Position numbers and translations under genes: made by a program | Source: Dipteris shenzhenensis | Taxonomy: Eukaryota | Assembly: GCA_047967505.1 (NCBI GenBank) | Contig: CM106538.1 | DNA length: 64,000 nucleotides | Reading direction: 5' to 3' (one strand) | Notes under the pieces: model-generated | Seen by the model: the letters and a program-made list of their open reading frames with translations, nothing else | The model's database searches: none | Told to the model about the DNA's origin: nothing | Part shown: positions 1-53,300 of the stretch, one piece after another | Layout: each line of letters starts with the position of its first letter | How positions within the stretch are numbered: position 1 is the first letter of the stretch

Positions 1-713
1 GATAGAACACCCTTTTTTCGTACTTTTGCTGAGAAGAATTAGGTCACACCTTTGGTTTTTAAGAAGAGAGTAGTAATGTACACATGAATGAAAGTGATAA
101 CAAAATAGGAGAGAAAAGGGGTGAATAGAGCTTGGATGGAAGTTTTCTCTGACAGATATTTGTAGGTGTAATAATAACATGAACAAAGAGGAGCAAAAAT
201 GACTAATCAAGAGTAGAATAGAGATAGTTTGAAACAAGGTGCTAGAAGATGGTGGGAATGCATTTTTTGAGTGCATTGAGGAGGTGAAACGTTTTGGAAG
301 AGAGAGAACAGTGAGAGAGTTTATTTGGAAGTCAAAGTTGGTTGGACTAGAAGGAAAACATGAGCATAGTTCTAGTTTAGGGCTATTTTGGATGGGAGAA
401 AAACAACTAGGCCTGACATGTCACGCCGGATCTGCCATATCACACTGGACATGCCATGGGAAATATTTTATTGTGTGAAGCACCAATGATGGGTATTTTG
501 GGAAAAAAAATGAAAACTTTCCCCTAGAATTGGGGAGCCTTTGTTACAGAGAAGTCCACATGGCATAACCTCCTTGACGGATTCCATATTCCCTTATTCA
601 AGCCTATAATATTTTAATAGTTCTCTAAAGGGGCCCTTTTTTAGTCCAAAATTTTTGTAATGCCACATCTTCCCTCCAACCATGCTCTCTCTTTGTGACT
701 CTCCTCCCTCCAG

Positions 714-836
<123 letters not shown>

Positions 837-1639
837 GCATTTCAACAATTATGAGGATCTACACCGGGAAAAAACACTTGCCACATGGAATATTCACAAT
901 CGAAATGCCACATGGAAGTATTTTTAAAGAATATAAATTAACTTTTGTTCAATGTGGTTTTTTTGGGTTATGTGTGCGTGGTGAAAATTTTTAAGAAGGA
1001 AAAATAACTTGGAATCCTCTCAAGTGGTAGGCTAAAAAATATATGGCATGCCTACTTGCATAATTGGTCAACATCGTACTTATTGACCTTAGCAATCCAC
1101 TCCAATAGCTTAAGAAGATGGTTTTGTTTCTCCATATACTTATCTATAATCTTCCATAGATATCCTTAGTTAAGTTTGATCTATTTCAAGATACATGTAT
1201 TCAAGTGATTTCTTGCACCCTTCTCTTGCAATTTTGTATGTGTGTGACATTTGGGTGACACAAGTGTGCAACTTGTGCATACGAAGCTCCCACATGGAGT
1301 TGTTTGATGTTCCAAATGAAACAAAAATGAATTTTCAAGATCTTAGAAGATGTCCATGTCAAAATTTATATTAAAAAGATCCAAAATGTCTAACTAAACA
1401 TCAACAAAATCTATGCTGGTTTTATCAACTGTGGGTGTAGCAATCTCTCCATCTTGTACTGTAATAGAACCTATCCTGGTTTCCTCAAGTACTTCATGCT
1501 CTAACTTGACAAATTACTAGGATCATCTCATAACGAGGAGATTGAGGCTTTGATGATTATTCTTGCACCCGATCACTATTAATTGTTGTAGCTCCCATCT
1601 CTTGATCAGCACCAAGCAACTCATTCATTGCATTGATCC

Positions 1640-2400
1640 ATTGGACAATGAATGATGCTCGGCCTTGGTCCTTCTCAATTGCAACACAATTTTGGCCCTT
1701 CTCCAAAGCACAAATGATGGTAGGAGCCATACAAGAGATACAAAATGAATCCACTCTCAAACCATAATAACTCTATCATCTCATTGATCAATCTGTCAGG
1801 CTTCTGATAGCAATTGACCAAATGATGGGATGCATCTAAGAAGCATAACTTTCTTGTCACAATAGGATACTTGAATACATTTTTGACATTTGTTTTTCTA
1901 CAATACATCCCAACCTTTCTCTTCTTAGAGGTAGAGAAATATCCAATTGTATCATCTCAAATAAACTAACCACTCTATCCCCTGGCATGTGTGTCAGATT
2001 AGTTTTGTACCTTACAAAAACCGGTCATAATATAAAGGATCTTGCAACACATATAGCATCAATATATAAATAAAAAAAATGTTACTAGAAAAATATAGGA
2101 ATGGAATGCTTACCAACACACCACTTTAAGTGCATGTGTTTCTTGCATGAGGACCTTTGTGACTATAAATGATTGCTTCATAGAAAAAAAAATTAAAATC
2201 CTCCACAGTGGGGCTATTGTCACCTATTTGAAATTTTGGAGCATTTGGGCTGATTGGGTATAGTTAAATGGCATTCATTAAAGTTTGATCCCTTCAATTT
2301 TTATCCAAATAGAATTTCAATCATGTAGAATGTGTAATTCCTCCTTGAAATCTTTTTGACCATGTCCATGACATCAATATTGAAGACATCATACTATAGA
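1640..2400 (-). pseudogene. N6_N4_Mtase-type DNA amino-methyltransferase domain (degenerate)
   Basis: Motif order is catalytic IV, WxKxN, QKPxxL, xLDxFxGSGT-like, G(R/Q)NxxxIE, which is the beta-class arrangement. ORFs 1675..1908 and 1557..1760 join by a frameshift inside motif I. Confidence 0.8.
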
Positions 2401-2779
2401 GGTGTGCCTTCTTTTACAAGGATGCATGCATTAACATTGTTAATAAACGAATATCTTAAAGAAGGAATTCAACATTAATTAAAGTTAAAATAATTTGAAG
2501 AAATACTCACTCAGCAAACTCATTTTCCATTCCTTCTAGCGATCAATTCTTGACAATGACTTGGGATAGAATAGGAGTTATAACTTTCTCATCACTAATC
2601 CCTTGCATGGGATAGAACAAGAGTTTTAACTTTGTCATCGCTAATCCCTTGCTTGGACTTCCAATGAGTGATTTTCATATCGTCAGAAATGGACTTGATG
2701 GAGACATCAACATTCCCTTAGTAGGATACCTTTTTATCATCTTGTTGGACTATTTTGACCTTTCAAAACTCTCAAGTCC

Positions 2780-3480
2780 CACAAGTTAAAGATTTGGTCC
2801 ACTAATTCCCAAATTGGACCATTTTGATGCCAATTGAAAGAAATTATAATAATTTTGTAAGGCTTCAAAAGACTTACTTTCATCAAAGACCAACATTTTT
2901 TTTAGGCAACAAAGTTTTCTTAATTTGATGGAAGGTTTAGAATTTGCTGCAATCCACTACGTATACTCATTATTAAAGAACTTGATGGCATTGAATAAAA
3001 GTCATAGTCAATCTGTAGTCATTGTCAATATTGTGGTCCCATGACAAGAGCTTAGCCTCCTTACTGGTAAGACCTATATAGATCTTACATTCACAATTCT
3101 TAAAGTATGGGGAGTCAAGGTACTCAAGTATCAATTCTCTTCTCATTTGTGTAAAATGACCACCCCCAATGCAATAGTAATCATATTGATCCACATAATG
3201 AGGATCAAAGTTAGCCTTTGTCAAACATTGGTATGGACAACTGTTACAACAAATGGAATAAATTAGCGATGGATTGGTCTTCATTTTTATCTTATGTTAT
3301 GCACATACAAAGGTACAGGTGGACATAATTCTAACACTCTTGTTCTAGTGTCCTCATCAATTGGTTGTCGGTGAATCTTATTGATATGTACGTAATATAT
3401 GTAATAATTCGTCACATCTACAAGTTTTTATTTTTGACTTTTCTCCCTACTAATGCATCACCAAGGACCTTTGTGATGAA
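2780..3480 (-). pseudogene. ParB/Sulfiredoxin-like N-terminal domain plus helical region (degenerate)
   Basis: ORF 2973..3284: Y-x-IGGGH-x3-R (cf. ParB IxGxHR), followed by strand-G-L-x3-EA-x5-HN. Confidence 0.6.
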
Positions 3481-3676
3481 TACAGTGAAAACTTCGTATC
3501 TAAAAGCACCTTCCAGGAAAGAAGCACTCTAATGATAAGGGACTTCATGAAAGGTTTAATTTCCTATGCCAAATCACACTATGTCAAAAGGGTTTATTTC
3601 CATAATCTTTCCCGATTTGATGGCATCTTGCTATTGAAGCATTTGGTAATGGAGGCTAATTGGATAGTGAAACCCA
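3481..3676 (+). pseudogene. Fragment of a protein-primed family B DNA polymerase (organellar linear-plasmid type), inserted antisense into the MTase gene
   Basis: YSENFVSKSTFQERSTLMIRDF...RVYFHNLSRFDGILLLKHL...VKP: ExoII motif YFHNxSRFDG typical of plant mitochondrial plasmid DNA polymerases. Both flanks read as the host minus-strand ORF. Confidence 0.8.
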
Positions 3677-4165
3677 TCATCTTCTTCATCTTCATCATCT
3701 TCATCATTGTGCACACGTTTTCCTTTGTCATCCTTTCTTGCTTCATTTCTTCCAGATTTCAGTACATACATTTTTATTTGAGTAGCATGCGAGGATTTGG
3801 CTGCAATGTTCTCATCCTGATGTGTCTAATGTGGAGGTTTTAAAGTAACCAATTGTTTAGATTGAGACTGAATGAAAGTGACATGCTTTAATATCTCAGT
3901 GATAATGTTTCCATTTTCCTTGATGCATTGACTTGATGCTCTGGCAAGCTCTAGAGGTGCAAAAACAAAGCAAAAAAATCTTCACTAAAAATATATTTCA
4001 TGCCATATCCTATATTTATTTATAAGATTGAATTGTAGAGCATCAATGTCATCCTCATCATACCAAATACTATTAAGAACTTTTTGGTGTACCAAACTCA
4101 CCTCTTCCTTTGTTTCTTGAGATCTTCAAGATAGCTCCAATACCTAATATTTGTTTTGTCGCGGT

Positions 4166-4168
<3 letters not shown>

Positions 4169-4239
<71 letters not shown>

Positions 4240-4356
4240 CGCATGCACATGCATGCATGCACGCCTGAGTGCATGTGTGCGCATGCATGTGCATGTGCAT
4301 GTGCACGTGCAAGTGCATGTGCACATGCACGTGCGTGTCCATGTGTATGTGTGTAT
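4169..4356. repeat. (GA)n microsatellite followed by a degenerate (GTGCAT)n tract
   Basis: Read directly. Confidence 0.95.
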
Positions 4357-5204
4357 GTGGAATATAAAAAATAATAACAAGAAGCAATAGCCAAACTAAT
4401 ATGTACCAATCAACATACACATCACATTGTTGGTTCAAGAAAAAGTGGTTTTCTTCCTCTGAAATCTCCTCTATCTCAATCATGATAGCAAGCTCCTTTC
4501 TTAATGTTCTCTTTGGCATGTTTGTTTGTAGAGAATATGCATCTAAAGAAGACTCAAGTTACCTTCATCTATATCTTTTCTTATGTGGTGGAGGGATCAC
4601 ATCCTTTGGTGAATCTTATTGTTGGCCAAATTGATGTGTGCCACTCTTCTTGGGAGGAGGCATTAAATTAACATCAACAAAACCTATAGGATCATCACCA
4701 TGAGTTCTCTACTTTCTCCTTCATCGTTGTGCTTTTACTTTACTAGCAAGAGGTGATTCCGTGTCCTCGTCCACCTCAAAGTGAGACCTCTTTTGAGATC
4801 TTCCCTTGTAGGAGGTGAATCAAAGTCATCTTGAGGTTTGCTTCCTAGAACTTGATCTCTCTGTTAATCAGTTGAAGGCAACGAATAAGAACACATGTAT
4901 TTTGCTGCAACTTGGCTTTCAAGTTCTATCGATTGAACCTTATCCTTAGTTGAGGAAGGATTTTTTAATTTGACTTGAGAGAAGGTTGTTGGCTACATGA
5001 AGAACTAAAAAATCATTAGAAGATGTCATATCACTACATTCATGAAGAAGGCATGAAGGTTTCATGATAGATTTATTGAAAGCAAGTCAAAAGTGACCTA
5101 AAGGAGAGATGATAGCTTGAAGAGAGGTGATAAGAAAGATGAATCCTTTATAAAAACTAGCAGACCAAAGTCATTAACAAAATCTTCATATAAAATTAAT
5201 ACAA

Positions 5205-6572
5205 AAGTCGATTCTATCATCAATTTGTGTCATAACTTATAACCTAGGCATGTTATATGTGTCTCTATCCTTCTTCTATCTAAACTAGACCTAGATGTAG
5301 GAGATAGGAGAAGAAGGTGCTTTTTAAGGAGATAGGATATAGGAGAAGAAGATGCTTTTTAAGAGAGGAGATTTTAGAAATACAAAGTTTAGAACAGATG
5401 AAAATCATGGCTTGAGATAAAGAAAGCTTGACGATAACATCATCAGATTTTGTCATAAATCATGCCAAAAATTGATGACATCATCAAGTTCTATCATGAT
5501 TTTGTCATAGATGATGACAAAACTCGATGAGATCATCAATTTTTGTCATAATTTATGACAAAGTTTGATGTCGTTATCAACCTGTGTCATAATTTATGAT
5601 AGAATTTTCCTAACAAAAGTATGAAATAGTAAAATGTGTGTAACTTTTGAATCATAACTCTACTTTTGGACCTTTATGGCTCAAAATATAGAGAATGATG
5701 GCTCTTTAAGTTACAAACAATATGTTCTTCATTTTCTTATATAGTTTGTTAAAATTCTAAGAAGAAGACACTAATAATTTGATGACAACCGAAGATGATC
5801 ATTATCTACTTTCTTATTTCTTATAGAGAGGAAACACTATCTAATCAACACATATCCCCTACTAGTAGCCAACACTAATCTTTATATAATTAGAGATTAT
5901 ACAACTCTTATTGGGACTTAGTTAATTACAGATCATATAACTCTTACAATGTCTAAGTTAAAACTTATTACACAACTCAAAAATATCATCAAGTTTTGTC
6001 ATGAGTTATGCCTACACTTGATGCTATTATCAAGTTATATAATTATTCTTACTCTCATTTACTATCATGACCTTTATATCATTATATAACTTAGCATTGT
6101 ATCTATATAATTTACCATACTAATGAAGAGCTCGGGGGGTGCACTACTAAGAAGCCCTATCTATCACGTGCATTCAAGGGGTATTTTAAAAACCCCTCAA
6201 CTAAAATTCCCCCCTAGTAAAAACACTCCTCTTTACTTATAACTAAGTGATTTTCTTCTAAAATTGAATTAAAAGTCCCCTCTTATTATTGTAATAATGT
6301 TAAATTTTTTCAAAAAGTTAAATTAAAATACCCCTCCTTTTGAATGCATGAGGTATACTAAAATTTTATGAGGTGAACCCTCCGAGATAAAGAGGTGATA
6401 TATAGCCAAACAAGTTGATGATATTATCAATCTATGCCATCATTGATATGCTACTTGATAACATGATTACATTAACTTACAACTTCATGATGCTATTTCC
6501 ATTTGTCATAACGTTTTCATAAGATCATTGAGCTGAGTCACAACTTATGACAAATATTGATGATGTTATTAA
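5205..6572. repeat. Degenerate ~41-bp repeat built from two palindromes (TTGATGA-NN-TCATCAA and TTTGTCATAA-N-TTATGACAAA)
   Basis: 16-mer copies at 5208, 5431, 5472 (perfect arms), 5524, 5565, 6018, 6415, 6557; second palindrome at ~5448, 5500, 5542, 5583, 5994. Confidence 0.8.
6128..6280 (+). repeat. DNA-transposon terminal inverted repeat-like sequence, inverse homolog of 33400-33546
   Basis: ctcggggggtgcactactaagaa...cattcaaggggtattt..aaaacccctcaactaaaa...cctctttacttat matches the reverse complement of 33400-33546 over ~150 bp. Confidence 0.75.
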
Positions 6573-6577
6573 GCTTT

Positions 6578-6843
6578 TGTTGAGAGTTTGCTCAACATCA
6601 TGTGATCACGTGTGCATAGCACCATCATGTGATCATATGTGCATAGCACTAACCCAATAGAGTGCTATAAAGGAAACGGTTAGATCCCCTAACCCTAACC
6701 CTAAATGGGTTTGTATATATTCTACATTTTCAACTAAATCTAGTGTACAGTTAGTCATTTGTGGTGTGCTCTGTAGCTATGCTCTCTAGTTGTGCCCTCT
6801 CCTCATCTCCACTCTTCTCCTCTCCCCTCTTCATATTTTGTCA
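6578..6843 (+). repeat. 5' LTR of outer Copia
   Basis: Starts tgttgag, ends ttgtca, immediately followed by a Met-i PBS; the left boundary is inferred. Confidence 0.7.
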
Positions 6844-7427
6844 TGGTATCAGAGCATGGTTCTGCCTTCCATTGAGGCGCCATCCTTCTTATGAGAGAGA
6901 GATTGAGTGATCGAGAGATTGAGAGATCAAGAGTTCTTTCACTTCCAATGAGTGATAGAATTTCAATCCATTTGAGAAGTTTCTGTCCATATTTGTGTTC
7001 ATTGCTTGAGTGCTTATGATAGTTTCTTGTGAGGGAAAGAGAGACTTATGTTCATGAGATTTCCGTGGATCTCATCCATTTCAACTAAATCTAGTTACAG
7101 TTAGTCATTTGTGGTGTGCTCTGTAGCTATGCTCTCCAGTTGTGCCCTCTCCTCATCTCCACTCTTCTCCTCTCCCCTCTTCATATTTTGTCATGGTATC
7201 AGAGCATGGTTCTGCCTTCCATTGAGGTGCCATCCTTCTTGTGAGAGAGAGATTGAGTGATCGAGAGATTGAGAGATTGAGAGTTCTTTCACTTCCAATG
7301 AGTGATAGAATTTCAATCCATTTGAGAAGTTTCTGTCCATATTTGTGTTCATTGCTTGAGTGCTTATGATAGTTTCTTGTGAGGGAAAGAGAGACTTATG
7401 TTCATGAGATTTCCGTGGATCTCATTC
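6728..7427 (+). repeat. Near-identical ~350-bp tandem duplication covering LTR 3' part + PBS + leader
   Basis: Units ~6728-7077 and ~7078-7427; PBS at 6844 and 7194. Confidence 0.95.
6844..6855 (+). promoter_or_regulatory. Primer binding site for tRNA-iMet (duplicated at 7194-7205)
   Basis: TGGTATCAGAGC. Confidence 0.95.
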
Positions 7428-9898
7428 GTTTCCGTTCATTTTGATTTGAGAGATTTCTATTGAGAGACCAATTGAAAGCGATTCACTCTGAGAGATTGTG
7501 AAAGAGAGAGAGATTCATGTCCATGCCTCTCATTGAGAGATTTGTTTATCGAATAGAGAGAAGTCTCTGTGAGAGAGAATAGAGAGATTGACTTCCTCTG
7601 AATAAGCCTCAAATTCAATAGAACTCTGCACCTAAGGAGAGACCTAAGGAGATCTCGGCTCCAAGTTCACAAGCCTCAGCTCACAACGAAGAGAAGTGCA
7701 CCTTGCTTCAAGCTCTACTTTTAGCAACTGCCTCAAGGCTATGTCCTACCGGCTACTTGCAGCCTCACAAGCTCCAAGTCTATAACCTTTACAACAATGA
7801 AGGCTTCTACTACAACAAAGTCTTCCAAGCGACCGACTCACCCATGCTCCATGGCAGACTCCAAAGGCCATAGCTCTCCAAGCCACAGATTTGGCTTCTA
7901 CTCCAACATGGGTGCTCTCCAACCACAGCCTTGGCCATGCTCTAGCCAATAGTCATGCCATGAGCGAACCTCTAAGGCATACGTAGTGCCCGCAATGCCA
8001 AAGATTCTACCAACAACCCTCCTAAACGTCCACTGAGGCATTAAACATCAGACGACAGCCTCCTACAATGAAGCTCCATGCTACACGAATGCGCCATCAG
8101 CTCCAACAGCCTTCCTAAAGCCATGGGCCAGCCAATGACATAAGCTGCTCAATCGCTCCTTCAACACATCAAGGCAATACAGGCAACTCAGCACCTCTAG
8201 CAAACCCGAAGCTCTTGCGACTCCTAGCACCTTCGAAGCTCCTCCATATAGGCCGCCTCACGTTAAGTGGTGCAGCTCCTTCAAAGCCCATCTACTAAGC
8301 ACCTCCATCAGCCATCGCCCACAACACCGCCAATGCCTCCAGCATCACCAAGGGTGGATGGCGATGGATCTCCCAAGGTCCATAGCCTTGTTCAACATAG
8401 TGCACCTTCTATAGCACACTGCTAACTCCAACTAGCCCCGCCCACGACCAAAACCTTGCTCATCCAGTTGTGGACTCCTTCAGTGGAACGAAGTGGCCTC
8501 CTCAGCATGCTCCTCGGCGATGGAATCATCCCACAAACCAACGGAGAAGGAGACAGAATCTTAAAGATTCCATCAGCATCACGTAGATTCCATCAAGACT
8601 CTCTTGTTGACATGTGGCACCAACCCTACCCTCAGCGTCACCACACATAGGTTTGGTTCACAGTCTACCACGTGGAAGACCTTATCTACCATGTCACTCC
8701 AAGTGACATGTCAATAGTCTCGTGAGGCTATCACATCATCAACCTTATCCACCACATCAATAGTCCACGTTAGCAGTCCACTTCAACACTACCACATTAA
8801 CAGTCCATGTCACCTATGCCATGTCATCAATGACACATCATCATTTCCCTATCAGCATTACCACATCATCACTTTGACTAGTCAATAGTCAACTACCACC
8901 TCATCAGTTAATAGTTGACCAATCAATACTACCACCTCAGCATCCTACTCAACTACCACATCATCACTGCCATGTGGCACTGACCCCTGCAAGCCCAGTC
9001 CCTTGCCAGGGACACTGTGCACATAGTTGCCACCTCAACATAGGGCTCCACAGGCACACCTCTTGTTAGGCACAATGCCACATCATCACTACATGTGACC
9101 CATTGTGACACATCATCATTGAGCACCATTTGCACTCCTTTTGCCCCTCCATCTAGATCAAGCGGTATCTCTTGATCTAGGAAGAATTTGAGGGCATTCC
9201 AAAAAAGGAAAGCCGCTTGATTTTTTATGCTCTATGCGCTCATCACATCACGCGCACATTTTGGCGCAAGTTACACTCACATTTGAGCCTCATCGACAAA
9301 AGCACTTCCTACATGCACATCAGCCTCTACATCGATGCATTTGACCCAACACTTAAAAGAACAAAAGAAAAGGAATTATTTGCTATTCTTTCATCGATCG
9401 ATGGTTGCTATAGATCTAGATCAGAGTAGGCTAGATCACTATAGAGGCGAAGCTTTGAATTTCCCCAAGTTGCCAATCTAAGCCATGCCCAAAATTTCCT
9501 GATTAGTACTTACTCGAAGTCAATCCATACGCCTACATATGGTTTCACATCATTACATTACCTGAAACTTGATGTTCATCAGTTCAGTGAGCAGACTTTA
9601 GAGAGTTTAGAGGCATTGCCGACTGTTCAGTGGGCATATAGCATTTGATTTCACACACACATGCCACCATTGTAAAGCCTACACGGCTATTTCACAACAT
9701 TGTGCACATCATTTCAGCCTTGTAAAGCCTCTTGGCTATTCCCGACATCATTGCCACAAGCCTTGTAATACATATCAGATTTTATATATTGCAGTTCTAT
9801 TTTCACCGACAGTTCATAGATTTCACTGGCCACAGTCAGTGCTTTACAGTTGATTTATACAGAGATTTTCACGACACTTTGAGTATATTTTTTGCACC

Positions 9899-10843: not shown

Positions 10844-13770
10844 TGTTGAGAGTTGTGGTGCCATGAGCACTTGTAGAGCAAAGGTATGAGTAAAGGGCAA
10901 GCTGCCACATGGCATGGAGGAGATATCCCACATGTGAGTAAGCAAATGGATGTAAGTACCCTCACCTATAAAAGGGAGGTTCATTTGAAGTAATATCAAT
11001 CAAGCACTTTGCACTATCTCAAGATTCTCTTTATGAGTCCAAGCTAATCTATCTTGGAACCTAATTGACTTGAGGTACATGTCATGAGCACTCTCTTCAT
11101 CATCTTTGCATGTAGGTTGCATCCTCCTTAGATTAGTGTTGTATTAGAATGTTGTCTTAGTGACTAAAAGAGTACGATCGTCACTTTGTCATGGTATCAG
11201 AGCTTAGGTCTAGTCTCCTAGATCAGTTATAGGCTTACAATAGGAGTTCATGGGTTCTCCCAGGTTAATTTTAGTTTTTTAGTTGTAGATGGAGAGTGTT
11301 GTTCTTGAGTGTTCTTTGTGAGAGAATTCCGTCCATGAAAATTTGAGATATTTCCGTTCTTGTGAGAGAGATTTGAGAGAAGAGCTTTTGAGAGAAGGAT
11401 CTAAGCCCAAGCTCCTGCATGATTACAGCAGCCCACTATGCTTCATGCCAAGCCCACTACGACAAGGTCTCCTACTATCTGCAGCTCTATTCAGCTCATG
11501 GGTGCAATGCTCTACCTATGACTAAAGCCTCACGACTAGCCCTTAGCAAGCCAGAACTAAGGCTCTAAAGCTCCTCAAGTCTATAATGACCTCTAGCCTC
11601 GACTCTCTGCAATGATACACAACGCGGAGGCAACAGTCTCCTACAACACTAAGGCAGATGAGCTCCATCTGCAAAATAGTCGAAAGCTTTAAAGAAAGCT
11701 CCGAGCTCCATTGACGGCTCCATCACACGTGAGCACACGGGCTCACGATAGCTCTCAACCTCTCAGCTCGACCAGCGAGCCTCTGCATCAATGTCCATCT
11801 CCAGATTGGCCAGCCTCTCCAAAGCTGACCTCTGCCAGTAACTCCAAGCCTCACAGGCCAGCCCGAAACTATAGCGACTCTAGCGAAGCCAATAGCTCCA
11901 TCAAACATCGCTTCTCTGATGATGTAGCACCTTTGCAACCAGCCGGATCACCACGTTCCAGGAACTCGCCAACAACTCCCCACGGCATTGCCGTCGTCGC
12001 TGCAAATTCTCTGCAGCCTCAAAGTTTCTCTAAGGTGTAACCTTAAGACATGTGGCAGATAATAACTAACTAGGGTTAGTTAGAAACATCCTTGGTTGAG
12101 TTTGTGGTCACACTATGGTTAGCTCACCCTTGGTCAAATGGGCAACCTTAAGGTTAGTTAAGCCACATCAGCATGCATAGTCAGCAGTGCCTTCTAAGCA
12201 CACAGCCTCTTGTTAAGCACAGTATGGAATTCAGCATGTGAATCCTTGTGCCACATCATGAAAGGCTCTCTTCTTCACAAAAACTTCGACAAGGCGTAAC
12301 TTGCAATCCAGAATGAATTTGGACACGCTCCAAAAAGGAAAAGTGATCTTCTTTTTGAGCTCTACACATATGTTAGATCAAAATCATTGTATGCAATTAG
12401 ACAGTACCAGATTTGAAAGTATCTTCAACTGGTAAGACCTTTGCAATGGCAATACGCACCCCAACTATTGAGAAGTTCACTGGGGAAGGATTCCACACGT
12501 GGTCCACACAAGTGAGATATCTCCTGATGCATCAAAAGCTTTGGAAGACTGTGAAAGAAGAAATACCCACTGCACAAAATGATGCCTGGAAGGAAAAAGA
12601 CGAAGCGGCACTATCACTCATTGGTTTGCACTTGGGTCCAAACATAATTCATCATATAGACTCCAAGGATCATGCCAAGGATGCATGGGATGAGTTGAAC
12701 ACAGTGTTTGGTGCAAAAGCCAAAAACCAAGAAATCCATCTTAAAATTGAATTCTATGGAATGCACATGGGCTTCAATGAATCCATGGTACAATTTGTCA
12801 ACAAAATCAAAAGCATTATGACCCAACTAGAAGGCATAAATGCAAAAGTAGGGGAGAAAGATGCACTTGCAATTCTCCTTAAAAGCATGCCTACAAAGTA
12901 CAGTGCATTGACAACCACTTTGAAGAATTTGCCAAATCCAAAGTTTGAGGAATGTGTATCCTCTCTTCTTGAAAAAGAAAGAGAGTTGAAGGCATCGACA
13001 TCGACATCGACATCGACATCTACACATAACAACTATAATAAAGAACAAGCACTATATTCAGTAAAACATTAGTGAAGTGCTACCATTGCAAAAGGATGGG
13101 TCACTATCAAAGTGACTGCAGATTGAAGAACAAACCAAAGTGTCACCATTGCAAGAAGCTGGGACACAAGGAAGAAGATTGCAGATTGAAGAACCAGCAA
13201 GTCAACTACGTGGAGTCATCAGCAAGCCATGAGCCAAAAGGTGACATCAATGGAATGTATTGAGAAACCCAAAAAAAAAACCTTGCCAACCTTGCCTATA
13301 TTTTGTAAATCAAAACCTGACCACTTGAGAGTAGCCATGAAAGCACCCAAGGGAGGATTTGATCTTGTAACTCACATCTAACCACCTTGCAGTAGCCAAA
13401 GGATCATGGCACCAAGGGGAGGTGTTGAGAATTGTGGTGCCATGAGCACTTGTAGAGCAAAGGTATGAGTAAAGGGCAAGCTGCCACATGGCATGGAGGA
13501 GATATCCCACATGTGAGAAAGCAAATGGATGTAAGTACCCTCACATATAAAAGGGAGGTTCATTTGAAGTAATATCAATCAAGCACTTTGCATTATCTCA
13601 AGTTTCTCTTTATGAGTCCAAGCTAATCTATCTTGGAACCTAATTGACTTGAGGTACATGTCATGAGCACTCTCTTCATCATCTTTGCACTTAGGTTGCA
13701 TCCTCCTTAGATTAGTGTTGTATTTGGATGTTGTCTTAGTGATTAGGAGAGTACGATCCTCACTTTGTCA
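10844..13770 (+). mobile_element. Nested non-autonomous gag-only LTR retrotransposon (TR-GAG-like)
   Basis: 348-bp LTRs 10844-11191 and 13423-13770, TSD CCAAG (10839-10843/13771-13775), PBS 11192-11203, PPT ~13414-13422, gag but no pol. Confidence 0.95.
12413..13263 (+). CDS. gag: Copia-type Gag with two CCHC zinc knuckles; frameshift/stop at ~13070
   Basis: IEKFTGEGFHTWSTQVRYLL...AKDAWDEL...LLKSMPTKY; CYHCKRMGHYQSDC and CHHCKKLGHKEEDC in the overlapping ORF 13072..13263. Confidence 0.9.
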
Positions 13771-13775
13771 CCAAG

Positions 13776-16700
13776 GTGGTCAATCCAACGGTAATTGAGG
13801 GAATTTTCATGGTAGAGGAAATCATCGTGGTGGACATTCTAGTCATAGTCATTTTGCAAATGAACATGGGAATATGTTTCTAGCAAGTGAGGAAATGCAT
13901 CAAACTGATATAGTGTACCTAGACACTGACTACAATCTCAAAGAGGATTTAAGCTATCAAGTCGACCAAGCCGAACATGATCCTTGGTATATCGACATCG
14001 GTGCATCATCTCACATGACAAATCATCAGGAATGGTTCACAGAGATGAAACCATTAGAAGGTCAGAAAAATGTCATCTATACAGCACATAATGCACCTAA
14101 TCCAGTTCAAGGGATAGGTGTTATACCTATGAACAATTTCACTAGTACGAAAGGATTGGTGAAAGATGTGCTCTATGTTGCGAAGCTCAATAAGGACCTT
14201 TTGTTAATAAGTCAAATGATGGAACACAACTATCGAGTCATCTTTGACGGAGATGAATGCACTATCAGGGACAAATCCATAAGATGTCTGCTAGTAGCAA
14301 AAGTTGTTAAGGAAGGACACTTGTATAGAATGCTAGCTAAAATATGAGATAAGCATGCTTTGTCAGCTCAACTGCAACAGATGCCACTATCTGCAAAATG
14401 GCACAAGAGATATGGTCATGTCAACTTCAAGTACTTGTTAGATCTCAGGAATCAGAATATGGCAATTGGGATTTCGAGGCTATAGTTTCTTGGAAAAGAT
14501 TGTGAAGCATGCTGCTTCAGCAAATAAAAGCGTACCGAATTTGTTAGAAGTACCTCTCGTGCATGAGGTATTCTTGATTTAATTCATATAGATGTATGGG
14601 GTTCGCAGCATCAATGGTTCAATTTACTACCTGACTTTCATCGACGACTATAGTTTCAGCATTAATGAGCTTTTGCAGAAGTCATGGCATTCAAAGACAA
14701 TTCACTTGTGCATATACTCCTCAGCAAAATGCAAGAGCTGAAAGGAAGAATGGGACTTTAGCAGACACTGCTAGAGCAATGCTTAGTGAGAAGCATCTTC
14801 CGAATCAGAATTGGGCAGAAGCAATAGCGACGGTGAACTATTTGCTTAATCGGATTCCTACTAAACCACATCGAGCATCTCCGCATATTTGGTTGCATAG
14901 CATATGCCCACATACATGATGATCATTGCAGGAAATTGGATGCAAAGTCATGCAAATGCATCATGGTAGGCTACAGTGAAGAAAGCAAAGCATACACATT
15001 GTATGATCCCATCAACCGCAAGGTCATTATCTCTAGAGATGTAATCTTTGATGAGGAATCAAAATGGAAAACCTCACCTACACAGGAGATAGAAGCATCA
15101 ACTTCACAGTGATCTACAGAATAGGCTAATGAAGAAGAGCAAGAATTGCTAGCAATACCCCAAGTATAGCAATAGTAACTCAGACGGTCTACTAGGGAAA
15201 GCAGACCACCAATCAGATTGGCATATGCTTAAAAAGGCAAAGCAATTCAGGTTGAAACCACCAAATATGCTCTTATGACTACCATCATTGCTACAAAAGA
15301 GCCAGTGCACTTTGAAGATGCAATAGACAAGCTAGAATGGCAAACTACTATGAATGAAGAAATGGATGCTTTGAATAAGAATAATACTTGGGAATTATGT
15401 GACCTTCCACCAGGAAAGAAAGCCATAGCAAACAAATGGGTTTACAAAGTGAAGTACAATCTAGATGGAAGTATTCAAAGATACAAAGCCGGCAGACTAG
15501 TTGCAAAAGGATTTGCATAGCAATATGGTCAAGATTATGATGAGACTTATGCTCCAGTAGCAAAGATGGATTCCATATGGTTCTTGATATCATTAGTGAC
15601 ACTCAACAGATGGAATGTGTACCAGCTCGATGTCAAGAATGCATTTCTCGATGGTTACCTAGATGAGGAAGTCTACATGCAACAACCAACATGTTATGTT
15701 GAACCAGGAAAGGAGAATAAGGTTTGCCATCTCAAGAAGAATCTCTATGGCTTAAAGCAAGCACTTAGAAGTTGGTACAGTAGAATCGACAAGTATTTTG
15801 CTGATCTGGGATACATGAAGTCCAATACATATCATACTCTCTACTACAAAGTTCAAGGGAAAGACATCACTATTGCACTTTTGTATGTAGATGATCTGAT
15901 TGTGACCGGAAGACTTATTTGCTGCAAAGTTTGACATGAAAGATCTTGGACTTAATGCACTATTGTCTTGGAATTGAGTTTTGGAGGAATTTAGTAGCAC
16001 ATTCATGAGTTAGCTCAAGTATGTTGATGACAGTCTCCTGAAGAAGTTTCATATGGTAGATTGCAAGATTGCAGCCACTCCCATGGAACATAGTTTGAAA
16101 CTTACTAAAAATTCAGAAAAGCCTATAGTCAATGACAAATACTACAGGTAGCTCATTGGATCTCTTTATATATCTGACTATTACACAGCCATTATGTAGT
16201 AAGCTCACTAGCACAGTTTATGGCAAATCCAAAACAGTCTCACTGGAATGCAGCCAAAAGAGTCTTGAGATACATCAGAGGTACAAGATAGTTTGGGATA
16301 GAATATAGAGGAAGTCATCCACAGCTGCATGGATACTATGATAGTGACTATGAGATCATGAGACCAGGACATCGACATAGGGATATGCATTTTTCCTTGG
16401 TCAAGGTGCTATATCATGGTTGTCAAACAAATAGCCAACTATTTCTCTGTCTTACACTGAAGCAGAATATAGAGCACTTATTATAAGTGCATGTGAGGTG
16501 ATATGGCTTAGAAGACTATTGCCAGAAATAGATTACTTTGATGAGTCAAAGCCAACAACAATATACTGTGATAATCAATTGGCTCAAGCATTGGCCAAGA
16601 ATCCAGTATATCACTCCAGGACAAAGCACATTGATGTCAAAGAGCACTTCATCAGAGAAAGAGTGTTACTTGGTGACATCATACTGCAGCATTGTGATAG

Positions 16701-22300: not shown

Positions 22301-24779
22301 GTTTTGCTTTCTACCATATTATAATGAATAAATATGCATCATAAAGTGTAGCTTATCAAAACCTTTGGTTGATAAATTATAAAGGATTTAAAATTTATCT
22401 ATTTTCTTTTAAATATTCCATATAAAAAATCAATGGCTTTTTTTACCTTAGGATTTCTAAAATTATCGAGATAACAAAAATCTATATTAAACTATTATGT
22501 TTTTAAATGAATAGGTTTAAAATTTACCTCAATTTTAAAATTTAGGTGAAATCTTGAAAGTGGGTAACACACAATAGTGTTCATCCCTAATCACATCACT
22601 ATTTATTCCAATCCCATACTTATTATTACATGAGATAAAGAAATGAATGGCAAGCCATAAATGAATGTAAACATCAAATGAATGACAAACCGCAAATAAG
22701 ACTAGCTTCCAAAGCCATCTCCCACTGCCATCTTCTCCATCTCACTTGTCGATTCTCATATTCCATGTCACTAGATTCCCTAGCATCTTGTGGGCCCCTA
22801 GACTATCATAGGAATGATGAGCTCTAAGGTCTTGTTTCAATTGAATGCGTGCATTTATTAGAGGCTCTGGGCTACCATGGTAATGGTGAGCACCTACAGA
22901 TATCGTTTATTTTTCTTTCCTCATAAATAGGCTAATGCAAGGTCTTGTTTAATTTCTATTTCATGTGTAATTAAATCTCATAGATTATCAAAGTCAGAGT
23001 TAAGTTCTCATTCCACGTTTTCACATATACCACAAAGAAATTTCTTGAGTAGGTGGCTGAGATGTATCTCATCTTTCAAGTTTCTAGCTAAGTAGTTATA
23101 GTTCAAGCTCATATAGGTATTGGGGTGTCCCTTGAGCATTGTTCGAGATAGATGCCACATAATAAGATGTCCTTGGCTACCATGCCACAATGTCATCATC
23201 GCCTTGAGGCCTTGAGGATGATGATGAATTGGAGAGAGGGTACCTAGTATGGAATGGCCAACGAGGGTCATGGAGCCTATGTGTGTGATTCAAGAACTAG
23301 CTCCCCATATACAACTCTCTAGTAAGATGGCACATTTTTGCTACTAGTAGATCAGGAACCCGAACCCTGACAAGCACATTGGGGCTGTCATGCACACCAA
23401 GAACTGTTGTACACCTTAGACAATTCCTTCCACATCCTTGGACACCTTCCCTTGAGAGTGTGTTTCATTTCATGGATGACATGAGACAAGAATGATGATG
23501 GATCTCATTCATGTCACGAATGCAATAGATCATGTAAGTGGTCTCTAATAAGGGGGTAAAAGCATGATAACCTTGTACACTTTTAGTGTTGATTAGCATT
23601 TAAATAGCACTTCCATAAACCACTATTCTTCTCACATGACATAATGTCAATTGTGTAATGAATAGTTCTTATGATACATTTTTGTATAAAAAAATTTAAA
23701 GAGCACAAGTATGTTTACAAATTTGTATTAATATGCTAGGATCACTTGCTAGCATCCCTAATAACACTTGTACATGGACATGCTATTATACATCATGCTA
23801 ACATGCTATTACCTAAGGACATATTTAAGGATTGGCCTTGTCACCCATTTACAAGGACTATGTCACTAGGTAGAGAGTTCCACATGCTAGAGTACATGGA
23901 GTTTTATCACAAGTACATGCTTAAGGCATGCAAAATGTGATCATCCATCATAAATTGAAGATCTGAAATGCAATGAGAGCAAGACTAGCATGGCCACAAC
24001 ATGTAAGTTAAGAGGATTAGTACCAATGCAAGGATGACTTCTAAAGTGGCTATGAAAAGTCCAAGTAGTAATAGGAGGTGGTACTAGTCCCAACAAGAGA
24101 AGATGAGATCTTCTCACCTAGCAAGGCTAACTTCGTAGCATATTTTGTAATTATGTTTGTCATTGATGTTTTCTTCATCTATTCCATTTGGTTTTATGTT
24201 CTTTTTGCTTAATATGCTAGTTTCTCATGGAAAACCGTCGGTGTTGTTGCATCATTGTGTGGTCAACCATTAGCCAAACAAGGAAGAGAATTAGTATGCT
24301 TATCATCGTAACATCCACACTCTCTTTGACCATTTAAATCAAAGGGAGTAAAGATCATAGAACATTTCTAAGGTAACTCTCTTGCTCTTACTTTCTAAAC
24401 TAGCTTGTTGTAAATTATGAAATATTGCATTACTTAAGAAACAATTTTGTTCCTATTACATTACTTAATAAATGTTTTTGTTCCTGTTACATAGCCCACA
24501 TCATCTCATGGCAATGGAGAGAGTAGGGGCAATAGAGGATGTGGGAGCAAGGGTGAGATAGAGTAGATGGGGATCAAGATGAGGGCTTTACATATAGTGT
24601 TTTAGAACTTTTGTGCATTTTTACCTTTTGTAGTCCCCATTTCTTGGTGGATGTGCTTTTGTATTTCTTTAAAGGGATTGTTTGTAATACATCTTACCTC
24701 TATATTCTAGTGTATTTCTTAAATTATGGCCTTCCTTTTTTTATGGGAGTATGCTTTTGTATCCTCTTTGAAGAGATTT

Positions 24780-25760
24780 TTCATTTGGTCCCAGGGTTTC
24801 AGAAGAAGTGAGATTGATCACTGCCTCTATACTAAAAGGGCTAAGGATAATAGCCTGATACTCTTGGCACTTTATGTGGATGATATGTTATTGGCTAGTA
24901 AGAACATTTATAAGCTTGATGCATTAAAGGCCAAGTTGCATGAGGCCTTTGACATGAAGTATTTGGGACCTATAGGTCATATTCTCGGTATGCGCATCAC
25001 GCGTGACTGGAGTAGGAAACTCCTTTGGCTTTCACATAAGGAGTATGTTATAAAAGTGTTGCAGCATTTCAATATGGAGGGGGGGAAGGCAGTAAGTACT
25101 CCATTGCATCCATATGTGAAATTGAGTCAGGAAGATAGTCTCAAATCAGATGAGGAGAGGGCCATGATGGCCATGATGGCCAAGGTTCCTTATGCAACAG
25201 GGGTTGGGAGTCTTATGTATGCTATAATAGCTACTAGACCAGATATTGCATTTGTAGTGGGAGTCGTTCACTAGTTTATGGCTGATCCAGGAAAGAGGCA
25301 TTGGGAGTTAGTTAAGTGCATCATGAGGTACATGAAGGGTACCAAGGAGGTGTGTAACTGCTTTGGCAGAGGAGACATGCGTGTATTTGGGTACATAGAT
25401 TTAGACTATGCAGGACATGTGGATAGCAAGAGATCCACTTCTGGTTATGTGTTCACCTTTGTAGGTGGTGTAGTGTCATGGATGTCTCGTGCATAGAAGT
25501 TTGTTGCTTTGTCTACGACAGAGGATGAGTATGTTGCAGCCGACATTGAGGTCAGGTACCATTTTATCAGGGAAGTACTTGAGGACAAGTGCATAGAGGT
25601 TGTCAAGGTTCATACAGATGATAACCCTATAGATATGCTAACAAAGAGTCTACCTAGTCAGTGGGTTGAGTATTGTTGTGTTTTGATGGGCATTGGATAG
25701 TATGCTCATTGATTGTTCTCCCTTAAAGGCACATTGGCCTTTAAGTGGGAGGTTGTGGGG
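24780..25760 (+). pseudogene. pol: Copia RT-RNase H fragment ending in PPT and LTR start
   Basis: DHCLY...LYVDDML, VPYATGVGSLMYA..TRPDIAF, HWELVK.IMRY, RSTSGYVF; PPT aagtgggagg 25743-25752 then tgtgggg. Confidence 0.92.
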
Positions 25761-50394: not shown

Positions 50395-53300
50395 TGTGAA
50401 GATAGTGGGAGAGAGGGAAGGAGTCTCACTTGCGGCTTTCTCACATGCACAATGGGGGAATACACACAAAGGTGGAGGCTGAAAATAGTTTTCCTCTTCT
50501 TAGTTGTGTAAGCCAAAAGAACTCAAGTACAAAGAAATAGAAGAACCCTATATGTGGGTCTCAAATCAAACTCAACTAACTAAGGTGGCATACTAACTGA
50601 GCCACAAACTAGAGTAGATAAGGATAGCTGTCATCCAGCTATTATTCGTGGGCAGTGTACCAATTGCATCTGCAGCTAACAAGTCGGTGACATAAATGCA
50701 CAACGGTCACCCTGGCATATCACGAGTGGAGCTCGATATCTCAACACTCCCCCTCGAGCTCAATCCCAATTCCTCCACACCAAGCAGGTCTCTGAACTTG
50801 CACAGCTTCTCTGCGCCCAATGTTTTCGTGAATATGTTAGCTACCTGATCCTCTGTGCTGACATAAACTAGATCAATAAGACCAGGTAGAACCTTCTCCC
50901 ACACATAGTGATAATGCACCTCAATGTGCTTTGTTCTAGCATGATAGACTAGGTTATTTGCCAAGTGTATGTTGCTCATGTTGTCACAATGAATGACAAC
51001 TGGACCATCTGGAGACTGATGCATATCATAGAGTAGCTTATGCAACCAAGCTACCTCACATGCAGCCATTGCTGCACCACTGTACTCAGCCTCTGTGCTC
51101 GACAAGGCAACTGTAGGCTGTTTCTTGCTGCTCCAAGTGACTGCAGCACTCCCAAAAGAGAACACATATCCACTGGTAGATCATCTATCAGAAATGCTAC
51201 CAGCCCAATCAGCATCAGTGTATCCATGCAACTGTATCTGAACCCCAGCCTCATAAAATAGTCCATACTGCAATGTGGACTTCACATACCTGAGTATGCA
51301 TCTAGCCGCATCCAAATGCGGAGAATAACCAATAAAGATGCACTTCTCAGCTTTTGGATCCAACTTGGACCTGAACTCATCTGGCACATGAACATAGGCA
51401 ATGCAACCAAAAATTTTCAAATGAGAAATGTCTGGTTTCCTACCAGTATACATCTCCTCTGGCGTCATGCCATGTATTGCTGCAGTGGGAGTCCTGTTCA
51501 TTATATAAACTGCTGTAGCAACTACTTCAGCCCAATAATAATCTGGTAGACCTTTTTCATTTAGCATGGCCCGAGATACCTCTCCAATATGCCTGTTTTT
51601 CCTTTCTGCAATTCCATTTTGCTATGGGGTATGACTGCATGAATATTGTTGCTTTATACCATGCTCTTGCAAGAACCTTGCAAACTCATTTGAGAGGTAC
51701 TCTCCCCCTCCATCTGACCTTAGGCATTTTATTTGCAGGCCTGTTTCTTTTTCAACCATAGCTTTAAAAGCTTTGAAGTGCCCAAACACTTCACTTTTCT
51801 TTTTCATAAAATACACCCAAAGTTTTCTATTGAAGTCATCAATAAATGTGACAAAATAGTGACAGCCTCCAATAGATGCAGCTTTAGTAGTCCACACATC
51901 AGAGTGGATTAATTCCAATGGCCTTTTACTCTCTTGAACATGCTTAGGAAAAGGTTTCCTTGCCTGTTTCCCAAATTGACAGGCTTCACAAACCTTGTGC
52001 ATTTCTGCAACCTTGAATTTAGGCAATCTTGCAACAATATTTTGGGCTTGCATTGATTTAAGTCGCTGTATATTAACATGACCAATGCATTTCTGCCAGA
52101 TATTAATATTTTCAACTACACCGGTCCCATGTGCAAACATTGCTGCACTCCATTCAGGCATGTCTGCATCCAACGTAAACATCCTGCCCTTCTTCTTTCC
52201 TTTTGCTATCAAGTGACCGTTATTTTTCATATCCTCAACAAAGCATCCATGAGGATTAAATATGACCTGCAAGCCCTGCTCAACCATTTGACCAATAGAA
52301 GCCAAGTTCTTGGTGATGTTCGGGACATGAAATACATCGGACAAGTATTTCTTTTTCCCATCCTACATAGACAAAGGAATTTTACCAATCTGCACAATAG
52401 GATGTGCAGTATCATCACCAGTCCCCACAAATCCTAGGTTTTCCATTTTCCTTGCATCCTGCATCCATTCTGCATGACCTGTCATGTGGTTTGATGCACC
52501 TGAGTCAACATACTACACATCATTTCGTTCTTCTACACTTGTCACAGAGTTGGTCATATGCTGTACCATAAATAGATGCTCATTTCTGTCATCACCCTGT
52601 CTACTGGAAGATGCATAATTGCCTTGCTGCAATTTTCCATTCATAATGTCATTCTGCTTTTTGTAGCAGTCCTTAGCCATATGACCCATTTTACCACAAT
52701 AGTAGCATTCAACATTGCTGTTTGCATTTTGGCCTCTCTGCCATCACCACAGCCTCTTTGGCTCCCCCTGCCTCTAGAGTTACCACGTCCTCCTGCATAG
52801 GACTAGTTTTCTTGAGTTTGCTGCATAATCTGATTTCTACCATGGGCTGCAGATCGGCCTCCCCTACCTCTGCCTCTACCTCTTCCAGCATTTGAGTAGA
52901 AGATAGTTTCTTTTGAAGTTCCTCCTGAAGAGGATGCACCCCCATTTCTCTGCTCTTCAGAAATTAGAAGAGCAAACAACTCTTCAAAATCAGGAAATTT
53001 TTCACGGACGGCAATGGATGTCCGGAACTATGCATAGTCCTTTCCTAGACCATTCAAGGTCACAGAAACTAGATCATCATCTTCCACTGGCGACCCAATG
53101 GAAGCAAGTGCATCTGCAATTTTCTTCACCTTCATGTGGTAGTCATTTATGCTCAAATTTTCTCTCTGCACATTGTGCAACTCTTGTTTGAGCTGCATTT
53201 TCCTGGCTTGCGTATTTGTGCAGTACATTTTTGCCAAAGTATCCCATGCCTCCTTTGGCATACTTGCATCCTGAATATGCACAATCATAGAGTCCGAAAT

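Follow-up and report, generated by a model that had tools for sequence, protein, structure and literature searches.

The window analysed here is a stretch of 64,000 nucleotides (nt) from Dipteris shenzhenensis (assembly GCA_047967505.1, contig CM106538.1; positions are counted from its first letter). From 3454 down to 1521, its minus strand carries the remains of a gene for a ParB-like methyltransferase protein, and at 5182-6430 lies an array of short repeat units with decayed palindromes. Comparison with related proteins (P numbers) and metagenome loci (L numbers) confirmed, at the level of homology, that 3454-1521 is a colinear, decayed copy of a streptophyte family whose members have a ParB/Srx fold, followed by a helical middle region and then a beta-class N6_N4 DNA methyltransferase. 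The features are as follows (^ marks a splice junction, / a change of frame in the window).

3290..3454, minus strand: N-terminal strands of the ParB/Srx-like domain (..INKIHRQPIDEDTRTRVLELCPPVPLYVHNIR); tblastn places residues 155-196 of P0065 on 3415-3290, in a frame that differs from that of the core
2991..3293, minus strand: ParB/Srx-like core (YYCIGGGHFTQMRREL ... GLTSKEAKLLSWDHNIDNDYR); 60 phmmer matches, best E 7.6e-27; 46-54% identity by tblastn; fold modelled on the relative P0066
2513..2986, minus strand: helical middle (FFQLA.., IWELVDQIFNLWD..KGQ, DDMKITHWKSKQGISDDKV.., SLEGMENEFAE); tblastn pieces in frames -1, -2 and -3, with stops
2394..2512, minus strand: remnant after the conserved exon-1 donor GA^gtgagt; sequence compared with L006 6090-6440 and P0063
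2274..2393, minus strand: motif IV region, with a degenerate IEILFG at 2321-2304 followed by a stop; tblastn places P0068 102-145 on 2390-2274
2114..2271, minus strand: remainder of the motif-IV exon (PFNYTQSAQMLQNFK, a stop, VTIAPLWRILIFFSM..HALKVVCW), ending within the W codon; tblastn places the L006 exon on 2271-2113, E 3.2e-10
2011..2113, minus strand: intron of 103 nt, GT..AG, phase 2 (TG^G); read from the sequence, same site in L006
1521..2010, minus strand: last methyltransferase part (YKTN; QKPDRLI at 1806-1786; LYLLYGS/TIICALEKGQNCVAIEKD) and C-terminal tail; tblastn places P0013 468-612 on 1947-1536
5182..6430, no strand: array of 52- and 41-nt units, each with a decayed palindrome T[CT]GATG..CATC[AG]A; direct-repeat family D2, TRF periods 52 and 41

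Identification of the gene remnant

The best query was the open reading frame (ORF) of 107 codons at 3296-2973 (minus strand), the longest fragment in the window, which carries IGGGH..R and GLTSKEAKLLSWDHN. An exhaustive phmmer search with this fragment against 1.84 billion proteins gave the 60 matches listed above at E ≤ 1e-3, 14 of them at E ≤ 1e-10; the best was P0001, with 54% identity. Full-length relatives aligned to the window by tblastn run colinearly from 3415 down to 1521 (~1.9 kb), and a weaker piece (P0065 145-192 on 3454-3302, E 1.3e-4 against a 2.3-kb subject) carries the homology out to 3454. Nucleotide-level similarity extends to 57 loci, many of which are 70-80% identical to the window over ~2946-3125. 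The GC content of the gene region (0.34-0.38) is like that of the rest of the window. All motifs named in the original prediction are present where it had placed them, and tblastn aligns them to homologous motifs of real proteins.

Searches with other pieces of the window were less productive. None of eight window fragments matched a methyltransferase or ParB model in Pfam, a 93-residue methyltransferase fragment had no match among longer proteins in a word-index search, and a 71-residue fragment had none in phages by tblastn. Because of the first of these results, the membership of the window copy in PF01555 rests on its alignment to PF01555-positive relatives. A very lax search of 3301-5600 for the N-terminal part of the gene yielded noise only, except for the piece ending at 3454. 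The gene had been predicted to span 1400-5029; of this range 1521-3454 is homologous to the family, whereas 3455-5029 is not demonstrably part of a gene, and the palindrome array lies outside it.

The methyltransferase domain

Of ten long phmmer hits, four scored above the PF01555 threshold and six did not. The scores were 65.7 bits for P0013 (E 7.6e-18), 68.9 for P0061 (E 7.8e-19), 42.3 for P0023, 33.0 for P0057, 28.8 for P0047 and 42.1 for the last exon of L006 (E 1.3e-10), with a cut-off of 26.7. P0013, a Ginkgo gene model, shows the whole architecture in one chain, and P0057 and P0023 also carry both domains. Together with the fold of P0066 (see below), these proteins bear out the proposal that a ParB/Srx-like domain and a beta-class N6_N4 methyltransferase are joined in one protein. 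In the Pfam check suggested with that proposal, PF01555 was found in several relatives but in none of the window fragments, and the ParB model ParBc in none of seven relatives.

The motifs of P0013 follow the order of the beta class, with DIPHG at residue 378, WHKPN at 446, YQKP at 518 and FSGSGT at 543. The window has the same order: motif IV at 2321-2304, W-x-K-x-N at 2114/2010, QKP at 1806 and motif I last, at ~1730. In the tblastn alignments IEILFG of the window pairs with ADIPYGF of P0068, CW^YKTN with IWHKPN and LAW^IKTN, and QKPDRLI with YQKPQSLI. Motif I, LYLLYGS/TIICALEKGQNCVAIEKD, pairs with DLFSGSGTTIACSLKKGRNCISVEKD, and its LYGS/TIICALEKGQNCVAIEKD part with FSGSGTTIACSLKKGRNCISVEKD.

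Motif IV is D-[IAFL]-P-[YH]-G in every member having the region. Relative to (D/S)PP(Y/F), the D and the second P are kept, Y is found mostly, and the first P never. DIPYGF is unbroken in 43 of 48 metagenome loci, which are 50-100% identical to one another. Hence the intact relatives that had been anticipated do exist, and their catalytic motif reads DIPYGF, not SPPY. We count the retention of this motif among divergent loci as support for selection on a functional enzyme. In amino-methyltransferases an Asp in motif IV is typical of adenine-specific enzymes and a Ser of N4-cytosine-specific ones, the latter also being stated in the Marchantia work cited below; the Asp of this family suggests N6-adenine rather than N4-cytosine methylation. 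The nearest named bacterial models, although far below their cut-offs, are those of the adenine enzymes CcrM and YhdJ (NCBIfam CcrM, 4e-12). A search of the PDB with P0068 gave only borderline matches to M.RsrI and N4CMT (E 0.18-0.84), among chance matches to nanobodies.

The ParB-like domain

The AlphaFold model of P0066 has a mean predicted local distance difference test (pLDDT) score of 74.5, and exceeds 90 over most of residues 200-340. Foldseek found 14 matches to this model in the PDB at E ≤ 1e-3; all 12 of these that were listed are Noc or ParB, followed by Srx, PadC and KorB. The best matches include CTP-bound ParB and sulfiredoxin, with E-values from 8.6e-6 upwards. Against BFVD, phage ParB/Spo0J proteins came out best, and two ParB/Srx proteins of giant viruses matched as well. 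Since the ParB and Noc alignments run over ~290 columns, they take in the helical region after the N-terminal domain too; the counterpart of 2513..2986 is helical in the model and falls within them. The ParB/Srx fold is thus confirmed by the predicted structure of P0066, not by sequence. As regards the nucleotide-binding box II of ParB (GERRxR-type arginines), the family conserves G-G-x-H-S-x-x-A-R-R, with G298, H301, S302, R306 and R307 invariant in ten sequences.

In the P0066 model, residues 37-135 fold into a beta domain of six strands and, after it, two helices (pLDDT ~70-86); this part is not recognisable in the window. It is possible that it is a chromatin-reader-like barrel.

Splicing and decay of the window copy

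The 103-nt GT-AG intron predicted at 2113-2011 recurs in relatives. The homologous exon of L006 ends ..CTT GCT TG^gtaagg and resumes ..atcag^G ATT AAA ACC AAC, encoding W^IKTN, with the same codon and phase as in the window, and L032 has the same W-codon junction. The exon before this intron could be aligned to its last residue in 41 of 48 loci, and that residue is W in every one of the 41. Because the junction recurs in this way, the position and phase of the intron are conserved between copies with only ~38% protein identity. The second donor that had been noted near 2510 (GCTGA^gtgagt) is likewise supported, in that it matches the conserved L006 donor after ..EFNK^gtaagt; the exon or exons due after it are missing from the window. 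Introns in relatives lie after ..EFNK, after an exon of 46 codons, and between FSGTG and TT.ACALK. Neither the window nor the Ginkgo protein models have the last of these.

As expected from the original prediction, the window copy is inactivated. The best reading path traced by tblastn contains at least eight frame changes (near 3293, 2988, 2835, 2715, 2608, 2272, 1955 and 1735) and crosses at least five in-frame stop codons. The last segment, 1521..2010, to which the L006 exon aligns at 1950-1536 (E 2.8e-17), has two frame changes and one stop. A 46-nt tandem duplication at 2562-2653 (family D3) doubles the QGISD[DE]KV segment. From the first donor (GA^gtgagt at 2512) it is only 118 nt to the point at which the match to relatives is taken up again, midway through the motif-IV exon; the small exon (HKVYMKIQE..) is therefore missing, as are ~60 codons at the start of the motif-IV exon. 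Both the catalytic and the S-adenosylmethionine (AdoMet) motifs are mutated, and in IEILFG the D, P and Y of the catalytic motif are all replaced, so that no intact (D/S)PP(Y/F) remains. The terminal branch of the window on the ParB-domain tree is 0.9 long (median 0.13), longer than all others but one. Judged from its sequence, the window copy is a pseudogene that would be unable to make a ParB-methyltransferase protein.

Genomic context of the relatives

Metagenome contigs were scanned with a tight alignment, which turned up 153 relatives; 80 loci were retained. We regard these loci as plant DNA because an intronless PPR gene adjoins one of the elements. In eight of the 14 loci for which ORFs were listed, a large ORF of 651-916 codons adjoins the methyltransferase gene at a distance of ~1 kb; it is divergent in seven and lies downstream on the same strand in L029. 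Five of the large neighbouring ORFs were scanned against Pfam. Four of them contain DUF7869 (E 1e-51 to 2e-53), and the fifth is the host PPR gene. MIDGMDQ, QLDN and HDHIDQ are invariant in eight DUF7869 copies that are 54-99% identical. The spacing of acidic residues would suit a DDD/DDE nuclease, and the ~900-residue DUF7869 protein is probably the transposase. Its neighbours in the protein atlas are multi-copy hypothetical proteins of arthropods and molluscs.

Two loci have terminal inverted repeats (TIRs) that enclose both genes. In L034 they are 37 nt long and 97% identical (180-216 and 7737-7773, ~7.6 kb apart); in L006 they are 26 nt long and 100% identical (1-26 and 8595-8620, ~8.6 kb apart). 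Homology between copies breaks off exactly at the TIR ends. All element ends, eight of one type and 11 of another, start with AACAC. One of the 19 is at the very start of its contig; the flanks of the other 18 can be seen and are all different. On this sequence evidence the relatives are cut-and-paste TIR transposons of ~7.6-8.6 kb, with the accessory gene facing away from the DUF7869 gene. The original idea of a transposon-borne gene therefore holds for the relatives, given their TIRs, their differing flanks at many insertion sites and the divergent DUF7869 gene. Contig coverage was rejected as evidence of copy number, since the contig with the host PPR gene has a similar coverage and depth varies between assemblies.

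Some further observations were made on these elements. The C-terminal third of the DUF7869 protein (~745-810 in the ORF at 513-3260, minus strand, of L007), after the putative catalytic core, contains a conserved ..GHQFWIGKV....SIKVHWY.. segment that by eye resembles small beta-barrel chromatin-binding modules. At 3280-3309 of L002, an end of the L034 type (AACACCGGGTCATTT..) lies within the methyltransferase gene of a copy of another subfamily, apparently a case of one family member nested in another. L025 is flanked on both sides by ORFs (2-757 and 8360-8809, both minus strand) that by eye look like pieces of gypsy-type integrase/pol (..FAEFAYNNSVHSSTGYTPFF), and this copy may lie inside a retrotransposon.

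Palindrome arrays

In the relatives, an array of palindromes with the core TCGATGC N1-3 GCATCGA lies between the two divergent genes, upstream of the ParB-methyltransferase gene. The periods of these arrays are ~52, 103 or 41 nt. The core pattern occurs in 43 of the 80 loci, usually as runs. The half-site varies by subfamily (TCGATGC, TCGATAC or CCGATGC), and three variants of the palindrome were found: GGAAGTCGATGC-N3-GCATCGACTTCC, CTCGATACG-G-CGTATCGAG and CCGATGCA-TGCATCGG.

The pattern T[CT]GATG..CATC[AG]A corresponds to this palindrome after CpG to TpG/CpA changes. It occurs six times in the window, against 0.69 expected and a maximum of three in 200 random sequences, and five of the six occurrences are at 5472-6415. 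Because the decayed pattern is enriched there and the 52- and 41-nt periods are those of the relatives, we extended the feature to 5182-6430, which we read as a probable remnant of the intergenic palindrome array of the element.

Distribution and diversity of the family

Organism names were available for 11 of 20 proteins looked up, and all 11 come from the streptophytes Ginkgo biloba, Adiantum nelumboides, Riccia sorocarpa or Chara braunii. In Ginkgo there are at least five gene models; they share 52-95% identity with P0013, and most are truncated, in differing ways. On the ParB-domain tree, copies group by host. The window stands beside P0001 without strong support, and the two fall in a weakly supported group that also contains Ginkgo, fern and metagenome-plant clades. 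The closest methyltransferases of prokaryotes and phages align with the C-terminal AdoMet-binding region only, and weakly (E 1e-7 and 2e-4).

Two individual cases may be mentioned. P0020 of Chara (1825 residues) consists of two complete ParB-methyltransferase units in tandem. The cluster of P0066 contains eight distinct intact first-exon products of 509 residues with 2-14 differences between them; such a set of nearly identical intact copies or alleles would be expected from an element that was active recently.

Interpretation and alternatives

We consider it probable that 1521-3454 (minus strand) and the array at 5182-6430 together are the decayed remnant of a land-plant cut-and-paste transposon, consisting of its accessory gene and its palindrome array, the transposase gene being gone. 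In intact relatives the accessory protein begins with a variable region, continues with a ParB/Srx-fold domain and a helical domain that is alignable to the DNA-binding portion of ParB and Noc, and ends with a linker and a beta-class amino-methyltransferase with the motifs D-I-P-Y-G-F, W-x-K-[PT]-N, N-P-Y-Q-K-P and F-S-G-[ST]-G-T. The ParB-like part may recognise the palindromes (TCGATGC N1-3 GCATCGA) between the divergent genes of its own element. Such recognition would bring the methyltransferase onto transposon DNA, where the putative mark, going by the Asp of motif IV, would be N6-methyladenine. This mark could shield the element from host silencing, regulate the two promoters or label the element for its transposase.

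Several results weigh against parts of this interpretation. As regards the window, no TIRs were found around the gene remnant, four DUF7869 proteins gave nothing below E 1 in the window by tblastn, and similarity is undetectable between 3455 and 5181; for these reasons the case that this copy once lay in a transposon rests on the array and on the relatives. As regards the relatives, L034 alone has both flanks, and no target-site duplication could be made out in it. The AlphaFold model of the DUF7869 protein has a pLDDT of 42 and is too poor for a fold search, the protein had no sequence match in the PDB, and we found no mention of DUF7869 in the literature searched. The ParB assignment had no counterpart at the sequence level: seven relatives had no match to Pfam ParBc at E ≤ 1 and only a trace of DUF6551 (E 0.032, on P0061), and a PDB search with a 39-sequence profile turned up no ParB, only a weak M.MboIIA (E 0.23). 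Concerning the enzyme, the two Ginkgo models that cover motif IV, P0013 and P0064, read DIPHG, with Tyr changed to His, and both methyltransferase-bearing models of Riccia, P0047 and P0110, lack the half of the domain that contains motif IV.

The alternative that deserves most attention is that the window contains a duplicated pseudogene of an ordinary host family, such as a germline or sperm DNA methyltransferase akin to MpDN4MT1a/b of Marchantia, with no transposon link here. All four named hosts, Chara, Riccia, Adiantum and Ginkgo, are plants with motile sperm; the window has neither transposase nor TIRs; and the copies group by host, as host genes would. MpDN4MT1 is also a beta-class enzyme of prokaryotic type (bioRxiv 10.1101/2021.02.12.428880). 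However, the same source gives TSPPY for MpDN4MT1, against D-x-P-[YH]-G here, and does not mention ParB. With Riccia P0047 as query, a search limited by its word index returned a Riccia paralogue only and no Marchantia protein. Relatives lie inside multi-copy, TIR-bounded elements with a DUF7869 partner, and the window keeps the element-type palindrome array. We regard a host-gene origin as unlikely.

A recently arrived fragment of viral, phage-like or bacterial DNA, for example from an integrated giant virus, is a good deal less probable still. Phages often encode an N6_N4 methyltransferase fused to ParB (bioRxiv 10.1101/2025.10.10.680097), and the fold matches include phage ParB and the two giant-virus ParB/Srx proteins. 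Yet the gene has introns at conserved positions, its family has diversified within streptophyte lineages, and its GC content is that of its surroundings. The phage matches are all weak and confined to the C-terminal 13% of the query, and the 71-residue and 93-residue fragments found no match in phages and among longer proteins, respectively. The horizontal acquisition put forward in the original prediction is not borne out in the sense that no prokaryotic donor is indicated, the bacterial and phage matches being weak and limited to the AdoMet-binding end. From these matches, and from a ParB-like domain that has no match at the sequence level, it follows that any horizontal transfer would be old; an old acquisition from a phage-type fusion is plausible. 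That short motifs were assembled by chance from three frames of AT-rich junk might be argued from the failure of all eight window fragments to match the Pfam models, but it is refuted by E-values down to 7.6e-27, colinearity over ~1.9 kb and nucleotide similarity to 57 loci, and its probability is negligible.

Beyond the transposon remnant itself, we tentatively propose that plants from liverworts to ferns, Ginkgo and charophytes harbour still-active transposons with their own methylation of N6-adenine (or N4-cytosine), directed by the ParB-like reader to a palindrome array in the bidirectional promoter region of the element, a self-written mark other than 5-methylcytosine (5mC) that might interfere with or replace host silencing. 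We hold this wider proposal to be possible but rather doubtful. If it were true, the half-site differences between subfamilies would reflect co-evolution of reader and site.

Relation to known systems

Accessory genes of this kind have precedents in algae, and the novelty first assumed for the gene is reduced accordingly. The Sola1-1_Ec32 element of the brown alga Ectocarpus has an accessory gene for a ParB-like and DNA-methyltransferase protein on the strand opposite the transposase, and the protein has been proposed to bind and modify the element that encodes it (Dinatale et al. 2025, PMC12477816). As in P0013, P0057 and P0023, both domains are in one protein, and as in L034 and L006, where the transposase is a putative one, the gene lies inside a TIR DNA transposon opposite the transposase. 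The algal element is 21.5 kb and its protein 1104 residues, compared with ~7.6-8.6 kb and ~650-800 residues in streptophytes, and the likeness is one of architecture. In red algae, PAG2 of Plavaka elements has PF01555 and PAG3 is ParB-like, tandem arrays of inverted repeats adjoin PAG3, and self-binding and self-modification of the transposon have been proposed (Petroll et al. 2025, bioRxiv 10.1101/2025.02.11.637652). The two kinds of domain, and arrays beside the ParB-like gene, are shared with the present family, whereas PAG2 and PAG3 are separate proteins with other partners (SET, 2-oxoglutarate oxygenase) and are carried by Plavaka/EnSpm, Zisupton or Fanzor.

The phage ParB-N6_N4 fusions (bioRxiv 10.1101/2025.10.10.680097) share the domain pair, its order and the location on mobile elements, but they are without introns, their ParB part has no detectable similarity to the present family and their methyltransferase is weakly similar at its AdoMet end. 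MpDN4MT1a/b, the N4-cytosine methyltransferases of Marchantia sperm (Walker et al., bioRxiv 10.1101/2021.02.12.428880), likewise show that a land plant can have a beta-class amino-methyltransferase of prokaryotic type. They differ in having TSPPY, in that no ParB domain is mentioned for them, and in being a tandem host pair, not multi-copy. On the evidence available, the present family does not appear to be part of the MpDN4MT1 family. Finally, chlorophytes and chytrids have proteins that join ParB and helix-turn-helix domains to a 'chlorophyte-type Dam', while few N6-adenine methyltransferases were noted in land plants (Iyer et al. 2016, PMC4738411). Here too a ParB-type domain precedes an adenine methyltransferase in eukaryotes of the green lineage, although the enzyme belongs to the M.EcoKI/TaqI-like group 2 and not to the beta-class N6_N4 type.

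In the literature searched on ParB, methyltransferases and transposons in land plants, we found no description of a ParB-methyltransferase family. Given the algal precedents and this negative result, we regard the gene as a land-plant addition to a known kind of accessory gene. Proteins that would make a transposon 'self-modifying', noted so far in brown, red and green algae only, would thereby be extended to land plants. The copy in the window is a dead relic, and its value is that of a pointer to the family. In relatives, the DNA itself shows a candidate binding site.

Canonical DNA methylation in plants is 5mC, and reports of N6-methyladenine (6mA) and N4-methylcytosine (4mC) in plants are contested. 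An element-encoded amino-methyltransferase with a targeting domain, close to candidate sites, would be a testable source of 6mA or 4mC in ferns, gymnosperms and bryophytes.

Other features of the window

Microsatellites lie on each side of the pseudogene, (CT)n(CA)n at 715-850 and (GA)n(TG/CA-rich) at 4168-4400; the latter breaks up the stretch in which one would look for the gene's N-terminal part. An apparent inverted repeat, (CT)n/(GA)n at 715-850 and 4168-4237, was considered as a pair of TIRs and rejected, as both arms are microsatellites. Just past the palindrome array, two direct repeats of 300 nt (6746-7045 and 7096-7395) are 98% identical and 350 nt apart. ORFs of Copia-type long terminal repeat retrotransposons are present at 12401-14347 (plus strand), 24723-25274 (plus strand) and 51622-52362 (minus strand), and include gag/Pol beta-barrel, RVT_2, and integrase with GAG-pre-integrase. 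The window is thus rich in retrotransposons, and its copia-rich content fits a large plant genome.

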